Shown here: piece after piece, positions 4,783 through 62,888 of the stretch
Layout: every line of letters starts with the position of its first letter
Numbering within the stretch: the stretch's first letter is position 1
Origin: an uncultured virus (IMG/VR IMGVR_UViG_3300024269_000049)
Lineage: Duplodnaviria > Heunggongvirae > Uroviricota > Caudoviricetes
Direction: 5' to 3' (one strand)
IMG/VR virus record: IMGVR_UViG_3300024269_000049
Location: 1-64,000 of that record
Length of the DNA stretch: 64,000 nucleotides
Notes under the pieces: generated by a model
The model's input: only the letters and a program-made list of their open reading frames with translations
Databases searched by the model: none
Told to the model about the DNA's origin: nothing
Position numbers and translations under genes: made by a program

Positions 4783-5316
4783 CTATTTCACAACACTTCT
4801 TAACCAAGCTGGACATGTTGATTCAACTTTACATTTACGATGTTTCTTATATAATACTTCTTTTGCTTCTGAATCATCTGCTCCAGGTCTCTTTGTCATT
4901 TTAACTTCTTCTTCATAATCGTCTATTATTAAACTACATTGTAGGTCAGGCTTAGCAATGAAGTTAAATTTCTTTCCTGTACCTGCATAGTTTAGAATTG
5001 TCTCACTAGCTATTTCATATATTGCTGATACATCTTTGAATTGATAATCGTTTGTTAATATTCTTTCGGCTTCTTGTTTATCTACGCCGAAATCAAGAAG
5101 AATTTTCATTACCATTTTTCTGAAATCTAATGGAACATTTATTTCTTCTTCAACTAGTTCACCATTTCTTGTTTTAGCTATTGTTGTTTTATTGTTTTCT
5201 ACATCATTTAAATATGCAGATGTAAGTTCATTGAATAATTCACGGCTGAATGATCTTTTACCACCATTAGATATTTCTTCTCTTACTTCATTTACTAATT
5301 CCATATAAGTTTTCAT
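4783..5316 (-). CDS. Conserved-looking phage protein, possibly a divergent HU/IHF-like DNA-binding protein
   Basis: C-terminal half ILNYAGTGKKFNF...KRPG...KKHRKCKV resembles HU helix/beta-arm topology by eye; preceded by both promoter types. Confidence 0.45.
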   Translation of the reverse strand: MKTYMELVNEVREEISNGGKRSFSRELFNELTSAYLNDVENNKTTIAKTRNGELVEEEINVPLDFRKMVMKILLDFGVDKQEAERILTNDYQFKDVSAIYEIASETILNYAGTGKKFNFIAKPDLQCSLIIDDYEEEVKMTKRPGADDSEAKEVLYKKHRKCKVESTCPAWLRSVVK

Positions 5317-5364
5317 AAATCATTACCTCCAATATTTTTTATATTATTTTTGTATTACACTTAT

Positions 5365-5394
5365 ATAATATAGTATCGAAATTTTATGTTTTAC
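5365..5394 (-). promoter_or_regulatory. Early promoter motif GTAAAA..TAAAATTTC-N5-TATATTAT
   Basis: Motif recurs at 34923, 37345, 38447, 55142 and 62869. Confidence 0.7.
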
Positions 5395-5426
5395 GGATAT
5401 AATTATTTGTTAGAATTTGTATAAAA

Positions 5427-11400: not shown

Positions 11401-14400
11401 TAAATTTGCTAAGAAAATAGGTGCTGTAATCGGTAAAGTTACAGCTGGTGCTAGTACTGCGTTTATAACAGACTTAGTATTTGCAGCTGGAGATTTAATA
11501 TCTGGATTTACTGCAGGTAATGCTGGTAACTTATTTGGTGTTTCACCAGAAAACGTTGACTTTAAAATGAGAACTATAAGTTCAGTATTACAAACTGTCA
11601 CTAACTTTAATGTATTAGCATTAATATCATTAGTAAATGAAATTTGTAGTGCTGTATGGAACTTTAACTTCTTAAGAAATATTGCTATATGGATTTATAA
11701 TGCAATACCTGGTGGAAATAATTTAGGATCTAGAATAACTGCTAAAGAAATAGATGCATGTACTTCTATAGACCAAGCATTAATGATAATGGGTGTAACT
11801 GATGCTGAAGACATTGCATATTTAAAAGACGGTAATGGTTGGAAAGATTTTAGTAAAGTTCCAAATGAAGAATTACATGGTGTTATATCAGCTACTGAAC
11901 AAATGGAGCTAGCTAGATTACAATATAACTTAGAAAATGAAACTAAACTAAGTAGTCAAGCATTTATAGATAAAGAATCTAAAACATTAGGTTCTAAAAT
12001 ATGGGGTGCTATTACAAAACCTTTCCAAAAGAAAACAGATAAACAAAAACTAATGAAATATCAAAATAAAGTCAATATATATGAAGAAAAACTTGCTAAC
12101 TCTAATAACTGGTTTACTAGAACATGGAATGGATGGAGATTAAATAGTAATAAAAAGAAAATGGCTAAATATCAAGATAAATTAAACGCTCCTTCTAATA
12201 ACTATGAAGTTGGAGAAGTTGTAAATCCTGATGATTATGCTAGTATGACAACTCCTATATTAAATGGTAGAGCTGCTGATCCAGCCGAAGTTCAAGCAAT
12301 ACTAGACGCACATAATTTAAGTGGACCTGAAATGGGAGACCAAATAATAACAGATGCTTATGGTAATAGCTACGATGCTAATGGTAATTTCTTAGGCAAT
12401 GCTGGTTATGGTGATGGACCAGAAATGGGAGACCAAATAATAACAGATGCTTATGGTAATAGCTACGATGCTAATGGTAATTTCTTAGGCAATGCTGGTT
12501 ATGGTGATGGACCAGAAATGGGAGATATTGAATATGCTAGTACACCAGCTAAGAAACCTTCTTTACTTAAAAAAGTAGGTAAAACTATGATAGAACTTAT
12601 GCCTGGTGGTAAAGCTTTAACTACAGGTATAACAGCATTTTCAACTTTATTTGGTAAAGATAATAAACCAGAAGATTATAGAATGGTACCTATACTAGAT
12701 GAATATGGTAACATAGTTTCTTATCAGTCTCAATTAATAGATGATACTACAGAACTTGAAGGTTTAAACTATGAAGAAAATATACAAATGAAACCATTAG
12801 ATAGTAATACACAAATAATACCACAAACAGATGAAAACGGAAATATTGTATCATATACTACAGTAAATAAAAATAAACCGACTGGATTATTTGGTCGTAT
12901 TAAAAATGCATTCTCTAATATGTTTGGAATTGGTCAAACTACAACAACAACTGGTTCTAGTGTAGATAACTCAAGCTCAGTTACAAATAATACTGGAGAC
13001 ACGTATACTACAAATAACACAACTGAAGTTGATACATCTATGTTTGGTGCATTAACAGAAGCTATTAATAATTTAGCTGGTGGTGATTCATCACATCTTA
13101 CTAAAGAGGGTAAAGTTGAAACTAGTGTTCTTGGTGCAATACTAAATCCAATAAATTATGTTACTAAAAAATTAACTGAAGCCGGAGTAAATGTTTCTGA
13201 AGCTGTTACTGGTAAAGAAATGAGCCCTGAGAAAAAGAACGCTATGGTTGCTGTTATGGATATGATAACTAACCCTATTGGATTTATGATGAATAAGATG
13301 AACTTAAATGAAAAAGGTGAAAGTAAAAAAGAAGCTAATGAACCAGGGTTTTTAACTAAGACTAAGGATAAAGCTGGAAATTTATGGGCTGGATTTAAAA
13401 ACCAAGTATTCAATGAAAAACCGTTATTAGCACAAGGTCTTGATAGTTTAGCTGGTGGATTTGATAATGCTACTAATTGGATCAATAATACAGATGAAGC
13501 TATAAAAGGTAAATATAAAGGTGCTAAAAAATGGGTTGGTGATAAATGGCAAGAGTTTAATGATTTAACAGCTCCATTATATGAAGAAGGAGATAGAGCT
13601 GGTACTAAAACTGCTAAATTAGTTAAAGCAGGAGCAGTTGCTGTACCATATTTTGGTTATAAAAAATTCATTGAAGGTACTGCAGTAGACAAAGCTGCCA
13701 AAAAAGGTATAAAAGCAGTTAAAGATACTTATGCTTGGGGTAAAGGTAAATGGGACGACCAAAAAGCTTGGATATCTTCTGATTGGGAAGAAGGAGATAG
13801 TGCAGGTGTTAAATTTGGTAAATCTTATTTAAAAATAGAAAAAACTATTAAGAAAAAACTTAGTGACATAGCTGATTCTTTAAGCAATTGGTTTAAAAAT
13901 ACAATTCAAGGTATAAAAGATTTCTATAATGAAACTAAGACTAAAATTAAAAATTGGTGGAATGATACTATTGACAGTATTGGAGATTGGTTTAAGAAAA
14001 AGAAAGAAGATTTAGTTAATTGGTATGAAATGAAAACTGAAGAATTATCTAAATCTTGGGATGGATTTGTCGATTCATTTAAAAACTTCTTTGGTACAAT
14101 AGGTGAGAAATTGAATGGCACTTGGGAAGCTATTAAAAACTTTAAAATGCCAAAAATAACTTGGGAAGGTATAACATTAGCAGCTAAAGATGTTTGGTAT
14201 TTCCTTGAAGATTTTGCTAGAGAGATGGTTGGTTTAGAACCTAAAAAAAGAGGGGAAGAAGATACAACTACTACTAATAATACAAATACTAAAAATTCAA
14301 CTAAAAAAACAGAAGAGAAAAAAGATGATAAAAACATAATACAAAAAGGTATATCCTTTGTTTCAGATACTTATAATACATTTAAACAAGGTCATGAAGC

Positions 14401-33519: not shown

Positions 33520-33589
33520 AAAACCAACCTCCTTATATAAAATTGTATTTTTAGTAAAAAAATAATAAGGACGAAATCGTCCTTATTAT

Positions 33590-34024
33590 TTATTCTGATA
33601 AAACAAATCTAACATCTATTTTTGTCTTAGCATTTAATTCTGCTAATATATCTTCTAATAAATCTCCATTTACGAATAGACCTGAATTATCTCCTAAAGA
33701 TAATACTATTGTATTTATATCTGTATTCTTTATAGATTCTAAATATACGTATACTTGATTTATATCTTGTGCATTTTTAGGATATAATGCTATAGGATTA
33801 TAATCTCCTAATAATATTATTTTATCAATATCGTATAAGAATTCTTTATTTGTTTTTACAAAATCTATAAAGTTATTTATATAATGTCTATCTGTTATTC
33901 TAGCTTGAACTCTATCAAGTTTCCATCCATAGCAGATTACTTCTCCTTGTTTATAATTATTCCATTTAGTTATATTCATCATAATTATTACCTCCAAAAT
34001 TATTTTATAATATCTCTTATCCAA
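33590..34024 (-). CDS. Hypothetical protein (probable start about 33980)
   Basis: GGAGG RBS at about 33990. Confidence 0.65.
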   Translation of the reverse strand: MDKRYYKIILEVIIMMNITKWNNYKQGEVICYGWKLDRVQARITDRHYINNFIDFVKTNKEFLYDIDKIILLGDYNPIALYPKNAQDINQVYVYLESIKNTDINTIVLSLGDNSGLFVNGDLLEDILAELNAKTKIDVRFVLSE

Positions 34025-34671
34025 TTAGGACATGTGGATACTTCATTACATTTAGGATGTCTTTTATACACTTTATTTACTTCTTCATTATCTATTGGTT
34101 TCATATTCCAACTTATTTCTTCATAATCATCATATGAATAAACATCTTCACGGAACTTAGAAATTATTTCTTCTTTTACAGGGTTACTGTAATATATTTG
34201 TTGTATAAGTTCAGCTTCTAATATTTCTTTAGAAACGTTATATAATCTATCATAATCATAATCTGGATTATTTATACACTCATCTAATATACCTAAATTT
34301 ACTTTCAATCTTTGATTCTTATCATCAGTTTCATTTAGGTATCCTCTTTCTCGTTCTATTTTACAGACATGTTTTCTTAATTTACCCACAACACTGTCAT
34401 ATCTGTCTAATAATTTGTATAAAGCTTTTGTATTTATATATCTACATTCATAGGTATATGTGTTTCCTCTAAAATCTTCAGTTTCTTCTTCAAATATACA
34501 TTTATCTCTATCATCAATTTGATCTAACCATGTATTTTTTATCAAACTTTCATTATAACCAAATGCTGAAGCTATACAATACATCTTATACCATATGTCA
34601 CCCTTTTCTTCATACCATTGTATAAGCACATCATCAAATTCATCATAATAATTATTTGGAACTATTACCAT
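34000..34671 (-). CDS. Bro-N-like DNA-binding protein
   Basis: GDIWY.MYCIASAFGY...YINTKALYKLL matches the Bro-N pattern; AAGGAG RBS before ATG 34671. Confidence 0.65.
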   Translation of the reverse strand: MVIVPNNYYDEFDDVLIQWYEEKGDIWYKMYCIASAFGYNESLIKNTWLDQIDDRDKCIFEEETEDFRGNTYTYECRYINTKALYKLLDRYDSVVGKLRKHVCKIERERGYLNETDDKNQRLKVNLGILDECINNPDYDYDRLYNVSKEILEAELIQQIYYSNPVKEEIISKFREDVYSYDDYEEISWNMKPIDNEEVNKVYKRHPKCNEVSTCPNWIRDIIK

Positions 34672-34697
34672 ATAAATCACTCCTTTATTTTTTATTT

Positions 34698-34907
34698 GAA
34701 TAATTATCATCAGATGTAAGCTTATAATTTTTTATAAGATATTTATAGTTTACCCTGAAACGCAGCTGGTATATATACCACTCCGTAGGTCCCTTATTAG
34801 ACCACCGCACTTTTGAGCGTAAACCAATGTGGTTAGTCTCCCACATCTGTATATACATTTATATCTTTTATTTGTAATTATAAGCTTAAACCTGATGATA
34901 ATTATTC
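34698..34907 (-). ncRNA. Candidate structured non-coding RNA closed by a 32-nt inverted repeat
   Basis: Arms 34698-34729 and 34876-34907 match at 30/32; GC-rich multi-hairpin core; early promoter at 34923-34930. Confidence 0.6.
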
Positions 34908-34922
34908 TTATATTACATTTTT

Positions 34923-34955
34923 ATAATATATAATCGAAATTTTACCTTTTTACAC
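34923..34955 (-). promoter_or_regulatory. Early promoter motif
   Basis: GTAAAAAGGTAAAATTTC-GATTA-TATATTAT. Confidence 0.7.
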
Positions 34956-34956
34956 T

Positions 34957-35307
34957 TTATCTAAAGGTATGATCTTTTTTAAGTTCTGCTTCTAAAGCAT
35001 CTAGCTTTAATTGGATAGCATCGTGTTGACTTAATAGTTTTAGATATTCACCATATATAGTTTCTGTATTTTGTAATAATATTATTAAAGCAGCTTTAGT
35101 TATAAATAAAACTTCACTATCACCTTCTACTACATTTTTAAATGTAAATAGATGTTTATACCATTCCATATTAACAGGTATAACTCTTTTAATATCATCC
35201 ACTTTATACCACCAAACATTACTTTCATCCATAAAGTTTTCTATCATATGTTTTTCCACAAATACTTCTAATATATTATTAAATGATTTCATAATTATTA
35301 CCTCCAA
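34957..35307 (-). CDS. Small Bro-N-like protein
   Basis: NVWWYKVDDI...LFITKAALIILL pattern followed by coiled coil. Confidence 0.55.
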   Translation of the reverse strand: MEVIIMKSFNNILEVFVEKHMIENFMDESNVWWYKVDDIKRVIPVNMEWYKHLFTFKNVVEGDSEVLFITKAALIILLQNTETIYGEYLKLLSQHDAIQLKLDALEAELKKDHTFR

Positions 35308-37037: not shown

Positions 37038-37090
37038 AACATTACCTCCTAATTTTCAAATTAATAATTTGTTAATATTTAAATTAAAAT

Positions 37091-37335
37091 ATATGTGAAT
37101 AACCTTTAAAGGTTATTCACATATCAAAAATATATTTAAATAAGGAGATGATTTTATATAATACAATATAGGTTAATTGATTGTTATTATGATTATTTTT
37201 CAGAAGGTTTTAAGTTGTCCATAAAATGGACGTACCTTCCTAACCATAATTAAATTATAACAACTTCTTCACTCACCCTTTTAAGAGGGTTCGTTTTGTT
37301 TCTTAATGCTTTGCTTTAAGAAGTTGTTGGTGTGT
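37091..37335 (-). ncRNA. Candidate small RNA with two structured domains, anti-SD tail and terminator
   Basis: Early promoter at 37345-37352, no ORF, nested stems, AUCAUCUCCUU near the 3' end, hairpin at 37091-37124. Confidence 0.5.
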
Positions 37336-37425
37336 TGATAAATTATAATATATTTTTTATGAAATTTAATTTACTGTAACAATTATTATTCTCGAGGAAC
37401 GTAAAAAAATAATAAGTAGCCTAGG

Positions 37426-38363: not shown

Positions 38364-38500
38364 AATTTGTTTCCTCCTTAAATTTTAAATATATTTTTTA
38401 TTTGGAACATAGAAATGTATTATAATTATTTTCTATATTCACTATTATAATATAGTACTGAAATTTTACGTTTTACACTTACGATATTGTATACTGATTT

Positions 38501-55107: not shown

Positions 55108-55141
55108 TCACCCCTTATTATTTTTTATTTGTTTCATTGTT

Positions 55142-55172
55142 ATAATATATAATTGAAAAATTACCTTTTTAC
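55142..55172 (-). promoter_or_regulatory. Early promoter motif
   Basis: GTAAAAAGGTAATTTTTC-AATTA-TATATTAT. Confidence 0.7.
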
Positions 55173-55178
55173 ATATAG

Positions 55179-62827: not shown

Positions 62828-62888
62828 AATTAAAGACCTCCTAAATATTTTATTTGTACTTCACCTATATAATATAGTTTTGAAAATC

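Follow-up and report, generated by a model that had tools for sequence, protein, structure and literature searches.

A candidate structured RNA, repeated in tandem and clamped by long arms, upstream of Bro-N family genes in gut jumbo phages

The RNA described here is very probably a genuine structured family, seen so far in one clade of gut jumbo phages. Its first representative lies on the minus strand at positions 34698-34907 of the window (the whole stretch of 64,000 nucleotides that was analysed, positions 1 to 64,000 of the uncultured virus record IMGVR_UViG_3300024269_000049), ahead of a gene of the Bro-N family. Five distinct versions of this combination of RNA and Bro-N gene, termed A (in the window) to E, are present in related gut phages, and in all five the closing arms are 27-33 bp long, differ in sequence and surround units of 120-145 nt. 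The window holds one unit, two near-identical records hold two, and the relatives hold two or three. The functional entity is probably this array of two or three copies together with its gene rather than a lone 210-nt RNA. Our preferred reading, which we advance tentatively and at somewhat less than an even chance, is that the RNA is excised by RNase III and bound by a dimer of its own Bro-N protein, the two parts forming a mobile cassette.

The arms of the element in the window (5' arm, 34876-34907; 3' arm, 34698-34729; minus strand) are complementary at 30 of 32 positions, as the preliminary description of this DNA had noted, and on the minus strand they form a closing duplex of 30 Watson-Crick pairs, one G-U and one U-C. 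This arm pair heads the inverted-repeat list of the window, and a census of the 73-kb record (arms of at least 25 nt, at most 600 nt apart) returned two matches, of which the 34698/34907 pair is the longer. The GC-rich core reported earlier is also evident, with 47% GC at 34750-34849 compared with 15-36% in most other bins and about 24% in the DNA overall. The minus strand is predicted to fold at -79 kcal/mol (z -9.9; equally stable shuffles, 0 of 200), and the plus strand folds more weakly at -64.7 kcal/mol. Two helices that had been proposed from the letters, the hairpin AUGUGG/CCACAU and the stem UGGUUUAC/GUAAACUA, return with pair probabilities of 0.91 and 0.81. However, the four-way junction proposed with them is disfavoured, because a constrained version of it reaches only -20.7 kcal/mol against -35.8 kcal/mol for a three-way junction, about 15 kcal/mol worse, and because the three-way form recurs in versions B, C and D.

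The preliminary description overlooked that the inner 133 nt (34734-34866, minus strand) constitute a repeat unit. From its 5' end this structured unit carries a self-complementary strand, Pd (UGUAUAUACA, 34848-34857), predicted to pair between adjacent units; a hairpin, P1 (34827-34846); and a long arm (34747-34825) that consists of P2, an internal loop and a three-way junction of P4, P5 and P6 (34758-34812) and recurs among the versions. At the inner end of the 5' arm (34876-34890, and the arms of B, C and D), the motif TTAA(G)...ATAAT is kept while the remainder of the arm is variable; its role may be to guide a nuclease, to bind a protein or to act as a -10-like box.

Evidence for the array comes from records compared through their identity over the neighbouring or the downstream gene, of which there are five others. 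Two of these (L007 and L010) carry the inner 133 nt as two identical tandem copies between the same arms, two (L008 and L009) break off within the unit and one (L016) stops where the gene starts. In an independent sequencing run (X8), contigs break exactly at 34733 and 34866, and the unit contig has a depth of 37.4, with 16.2 and 13.2 on its flanks; depth is a rough guide, and these values fit two to three copies of the unit. Against the array, no back-jumping joint is listed among the contigs of that run. The single copy in the window might be either an assembly collapse or a natural variant. The tandem form itself is not an assembler artefact, since the copies in versions D and E have diverged from each other. 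Short-read assemblies can thus conceal tandem arrays of such RNAs.

Versions B, C and D were reached by following the protein family through 26 representatives, and each occupies a different genomic site. Version B has two units of 143 nt (genome G002), C has two of 145 nt (G002 and G003), and D has two partly diverged copies of about 136 nt (G006). Version E, found in a repeat census, has three units of 123 nt, the first of them diverged (G003); its three units and its want of a three-way junction count against our preferred reading. Two genomes carry two different cassettes, B with C in G002 and C with E in G003. Across 808 kb of related genomes (G002 and G007 scanned in part), a tandem repeat of 90-200 nt inside long arms occurs at four cassette sites only.

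The association with the gene is strict. Every full-length family gene with upstream DNA is preceded by the RNA (7 of 7, in four versions: A in G000, G007 and G008, B in G002, C in G002 and G003, and D in G006); an eighth, in G001, stands outside this count because its record lacks the upstream DNA. RNA and gene are also missing together from the syntenic site in four of four relatives with 76-83% identity in the neighbouring protein; two of these relatives (L013 and L014) retain the promoter, and run X8 contains a contig that skips 33995-34957. The gene behind version E matches the protein family weakly (hhalign probability 2.7%, E 0.017). This gene (L326, 17427-18119) has neither a Pfam match nor the STCPxW tail of the family, and the alignment of its N-terminus with the Bro-N portion of the family is weak.

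Two further genes of the window resemble parts of the family. An early gene at 4783-5316 (minus strand) codes for 177 amino acids and carries the same C-terminal tail, KR...STCPxW, as the Bro-N family, but a Bro-N domain is lacking. It was found in eight of the records searched, no RNA lies upstream of it at the loci inspected, and cassette C sits directly behind it in G002 and G003. Such a tail might act as a common tag for targeting or interaction. The gene just upstream of the element (34957-35292, minus strand; 111 amino acids) resembles a short Bro-N-like protein, and its homologues of similar length in relatives give weak matches to the family profile (E 2e-5 to 0.003).

All versions follow one unit plan, in which a 5' strand is followed by hairpin P1 and by the long arm. 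The loop of P1 reads CAAAA in B, C and E. In A to D the long arm ends in the three-way junction, where GGU is paired with GCY and a U-G pair closes the junction, and P6 begins with W-GGUA and is stacked without a linker; in E a single hairpin takes the place of the junction. Where the closing arms of A to E depart from Watson-Crick pairing, the sense strand has G-U at five of six positions, and the sense strand is the better folder in five of five cassette forms tested. In D (L161, 1171-1436), P1 has a CUAAG/UAUG motif, which we take to be tetraloop-receptor-like, and P5 carries a GAAA loop; an internal loop AGUA/GAA in B (L019, 1590-1670) and in D is presumably loop-E-like.

The preliminary description had proposed looking for covariation in relatives, and B and C, which are 71% identical, permit this comparison. 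All 34 modelled pairs are kept and eight show compensatory double changes, among them changes in P1, an outcome drawn from two sequences and a structure derived from those same two. Shuffled controls did as well in 2 of 500 cases, and slid controls were 32-44% paired. A covariance model built from B and C ranks A at the top of 110 matches in the window, with a marginal E of 0.007 and the next match at 0.009; A and B also have an exact 15-mer in common at the same offset. The same model does not find D significantly (E 3.4 and 8.9), and we count D as a member of the family on the grounds of its topology, junction letters, arms and gene. The model is insensitive as a search tool, with matches in 2 of 32 records and A, D and E missed there. 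Sequence-only HMMs reached E2/E3 at E 0.15 (from B and C), and found neither A nor D (from B and C, or from B, C and E). Covariation, strand asymmetry and an architecture that recurs in relatives together support the original view of an unrecognised structured phage RNA.

The strand that precedes P1 is self-complementary in every version, at the same place but with different letters: UGUAUAUACA in A and B, UGGUAUAUCA in C, GAAUAUUC with GGAUAUUC in D, and GUAUGUAUAC in E2/E3. Random genome segments self-pair equally well in 1-5% of cases, and the palindromes of C, D and E need G-U pairs to be complete. In two-copy forms, the predicted probability of pairing between the palindromes of units 1 and 2 is about 0.98 in B (in two registers), 0.95 in C and 0.73 in D. 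In A, Pd pairing reaches only 0.18, and a different swap, through P6, prevails in the ensemble; in E, the first unit pairs poorly with the second. Pairing between units would create two equivalent four-way junctions in an RNA of about 340 nt with two-fold symmetry. With the local arms fixed, this symmetric fold lies at the minimum or within 0.6 kcal/mol of it in A, B and C, and is 10-14 kcal/mol better than independent units. Against a special role of the strand, shuffling the palindrome, a segment chosen after the folds had been viewed, left the two-copy fold no less stable in 28 of 40 trials for A, 26 of 40 for C and 4 of 40 for B. The models indicate that the palindromic strand can pair adjacent units into a symmetric RNA.

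The RNA of the window is predicted to be transcribed together with its gene. An AR9-type early promoter block, TGTAAAAAGG...TTTCGATTA-TATATTAT, occupies 34923-34955 on the minus strand, agrees with the AR9 consensus and is the promoter kept at the empty site. Its TATATTAT portion (34930-34923) stands 15 nt ahead of the arm. In AR9 the early promoter reads AAATATATATTAT-6N-G and the late one AACA-6N-TA (PMC5312081). All six early-type sites of the record that have an upstream TTTC motif likewise show a G seven bases on, and on this basis transcription would start at the G at 34916, which leaves 9 nt to the first arm. The early promoter that had been described about 15 nt upstream is thereby confirmed for this copy. 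Early timing holds for A and E but not as a family trait, since C and D start at a site of the AR9 late type; B is ambiguous. A conserved, extended family of early promoters, TGTAAAA..GTAA.TTTCAA..TATATTAT-6N-G, which is longer than the AR9 consensus, occurs at 5340-5396, 38422-38478, 55117-55173 and 62845-62885.

Downstream of the element, an A-rich spacer (34672-34697, minus strand) contains the Shine-Dalgarno sequence AAGGAG (34685-34680), in agreement with the earlier assignment of a ribosome binding site for the Bro-N gene. The spacer lies outside the fold and includes no terminator. It leads into the Bro-N family gene (34000-34671; 223 amino acids), which has the conserved STCPxW tail, and a resident gene for 130 amino acids with its terminator (33560-33982), both genes being on the minus strand, ends the transcription unit; the resident gene does not belong to the cassette. 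Two RNA-labelled runs (X19 and X20) cover small shares of the stretch, with their coverage outside the element.

The source record belongs to an AR9/PBS1-like jumbo phage, whose RNA polymerase beta-prime subunit shares about 35% identity with its counterparts in jumbo phages of Bacillus, Listeria and Staphylococcus. The DNA runs that contain the stretch are faecal or gut metagenomes, and an antiporter gene used for host assignment matches gut Bacillota only, at 45-61% identity. Its closest homologue (61%) lies on a 238-kb AT-rich contig (L347) in a faecal Bacilli MAG. This contig may be a binned phage, and a search of it did not find the cassette gene. Elsewhere in the window, a near-perfect in-frame tandem repeat of 93 nt lies within a gene for 4440 amino acids (12322-12507), and about 380 nt at 37040-37420 are poor in ORFs, with GC-rich, hairpin-like stretches in the L013 counterpart.

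The downstream protein passes the cut-off for Bro-N (26.1 versus 25.6 bits), and 17 of 27 family members match Bro-N, with none of the RNase toxin families (ToxN, CptN, HEPN) listed among the matches. Viral matches in a fold search are Bro-N and antirepressor proteins, and a PDB fold search gave nothing at E 0.001 or better. When modelled as a homodimer, residues 1-180 score 0.68, against 0.11 for the best of three controls; a score of 0.68 was attained by 20 of 30 solved homodimers and by 1 of 23 single chains. Contacts agree by at least 74% between runs and pLDDT is at least 77, so that modelling supports dimerisation of the family protein. All three segments of the protein for which charges were counted are acidic, which counts against our preferred reading, and the family has no conserved RX4-6H (RxxxxH) nuclease column. 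Wider searches returned no further members: a tblastn search with the B protein against 50,697 named phage records gave no match, the protein profile detected none among 22 more distant AR9-like records, in the faecal MAG with the 238-kb contig or in 399 scored Bacillota genomes, and a peptide scan of genome contigs did not find the family.

No catalogued family accounts for the RNA, in keeping with the original failure to recognise one. The covariance models of Rfam 15 gave no match in the window at the gathering score, and relaxing the threshold to E 10 over the element and to E 5 over B, C, D and E brought up none either. When the element was compared by BLASTN with the same 50,697 phage records, only short AT-rich or promoter matches appeared, in 14 records. 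None of the 116 stretches from one motif scan combines tandem units with arms, B and C alone are genuine among the 91 from a second, and six metagenome motif matches comprise two tail-only paralogues and four chance hits. A literature search, outside which lay subscription papers, bioRxiv supplements and supplementary motif tables, found no description of this RNA.

Several identities suggested in the preliminary description do not survive comparison. ARAGORN finds no tRNA gene, and the loops of P6 are variable and 3-4 nt long as opposed to the 7-nt T loop of tRNA-like RNAs. A Y RNA is disfavoured, as the TROVE domain of Ro60 is found in none of six related records (one of them more than 90% complete; phage side only). 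The RNA has no Rfam match to 6S RNA, and its fold is branched and repeated rather than a single rod with a central bubble. A MITE would not be expected from a single site in the record and arms that differ among cassettes. We also rejected a retron or DRT RNA, given that RVT_1 occurs in none of five related records (the control was positive in 3 of 14 genomes) and that the neighbouring genes are not reverse transcriptases.

Other known systems offer closer likenesses. C4 antisense RNA of phages P1 and P7 lies upstream of an antirepressor gene. Like it, the present RNA is structured, phage-borne and presumably cut from a longer transcript (PMC5320573 for C4). However, our RNA is larger and tandem, has no Rfam C4 match and no loop complementary to the ribosome site, and resides in an AR9-like lytic phage; its longest match to its own gene start is 5-9 nt, which does not exceed shuffles in four of five units, the duplex of B being borderline (0.04). 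Long near-perfect duplexes that bracket structured RNA are familiar from phage and rRNA transcripts, where RNase III processes them, and RNase III needs a duplex of about two helical turns or more. The closing duplexes are of suitable length in all five cassettes, which makes RNase III processing plausible for what is a predicted substrate with an uncatalogued repeat unit as its cargo. The self-complementary strand swap, two-fold symmetry and linked tandem copies recall the hatchet ribozyme dimer, the HIV DIS and the glycine riboswitch (PMC7357161), although neither sequence nor model matches these and the palindrome here is 8-10 nt long and lies in a junction strand.

The nearest parallel is with type III toxin-antitoxin (TA) systems and AbiF/RCd22. 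There, according to a recent preprint, an RNA of two to three repeats lies directly upstream of a single gene and is co-transcribed with it, and the two-repeat RNA RCd22 binds its downstream AbiF protein (10.1101/2025.04.15.648962). Although tandem repeats are found here too, the RNA is not a member of that group: its units are 120-145 nt rather than the 33-50 nt given there, a 27-33-bp clamp is present, an intrinsic terminator between RNA and gene is lacking, and the gene encodes a Bro-N protein without a conserved RxxxxH nuclease motif rather than an RNase toxin. The RNA thus fails every test of family membership, and its mechanism may nevertheless resemble that of type III TA.

A cognate RNA-protein module is the best single reading, on account of the strict pairing of RNA and dimer, a duplex suited to RNase III and the RCd22/AbiF precedent. 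The RNA array and the downstream Bro-N protein would be made as one transcript, in which the long arms would clamp two or three units into one domain and leave the ribosome site outside. Adjacent units would then pair through their palindromic strands into a two-fold symmetric RNA, and host RNase III may cut the duplex of about 30 bp, freeing the RNA from the mRNA. The symmetric RNA might bind the Bro-N homodimer and set the amount of protein free to act on DNA, in the manner of the repeat-RNA antitoxins of type III TA/AbiF but with a protein of DNA-binding type replacing the nuclease. A related proposal, that the RNase III-released RNA and the homodimer form a new class of phage ribonucleoprotein that acts on a host target in defence or transcription, seems rather unlikely to us.

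If the RNA instead acted in trans, it might serve as a decoy or sponge against some host factor, be it RNA polymerase, a nucleotide signal or a dimeric defence protein that has an RNA partner, with the Bro-N gene travelling along as a helper. A patchy, mobile distribution over varied sites, the paired cassettes of G002 and G003, tandem amplification, transcription probably driven by strong phage promoters and a duplex fit for release and stabilisation all accord with this; yet Rfam reveals no resemblance even when E is relaxed to 5-10, no counterpart in the host came to light (bacterial genomes lay outside the RNA-model search), and the tight link with one gene family is simpler as a cognate pair, so that we judge a decoy unlikely. 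Only slightly more doubtful is a cis-acting 5' leader (tandem aptamer, processing site or stabiliser) that controls the Bro-N mRNA alone, for example by autoregulation. In every case the RNA immediately precedes the gene in the same orientation, with no intervening terminator, and tandem aptamers are known, as in the glycine riboswitch. No expression platform is visible, however, the antisense matches described above are weak, and the Shine-Dalgarno sequence is predicted to be unpaired with probabilities of 0.5-0.99 in A, B and D and 0.2-0.99 in C. With the ribosome site outside the fold, no terminator and no convincing antisense match, neither a classic leader switch nor C4-type control is evident. 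The leader switch suggested earlier is thus weakly disfavoured, although ligand-driven refolding might still operate.

We consider it very unlikely that the element acts as DNA, be it a MITE, a cruciform or an array of Bro-N operators whose arms and repeats arose by template switching and unequal crossing-over. Long inverted arms with the inner motif TTAAG...ATAAT in common, identical tandem copies in A, B and C, the palindromes and a neighbouring protein of DNA-binding type would suit such an element, but it occupies one site in the record, the arm sequences differ among cassettes, the palindromes of C, D and E depend on G-U pairs, the inner helices covary and folding is strand-asymmetric. 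Less probable still is a new small ribozyme, or concatemers left by rolling-circle reverse transcription, for which one might cite exact tandem units with a junction microhomology of only 1 nt, the fixed junction nucleotides (GGU/GCY and W-GGUA), the receptor-like CUAAG/UAUG with a GAAA loop in D and the loop-E-like AGUA/GAA in B and D. Rfam searches matched no ribozyme family, the related records are devoid of RVT_1, and the diverged copies in D and E resemble ordinary genomic arrays.

Whichever partner it has, the RNA family is of unusual design, with a variable-copy array, one long stem as a clamp and predicted dimerisation through a conserved palindrome, and it moves between jumbo-phage sites with a Bro-N gene. 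The five natural variants provide ready constructs for structure probing and for RNase III and binding assays. If the RNA binds a Bro-N dimer or a host factor, it would represent a new kind of phage RNA-protein module; and if the ribonucleoprotein with a host target is real, Bro-N proteins, which are widespread and poorly understood, would gain an RNA partner.
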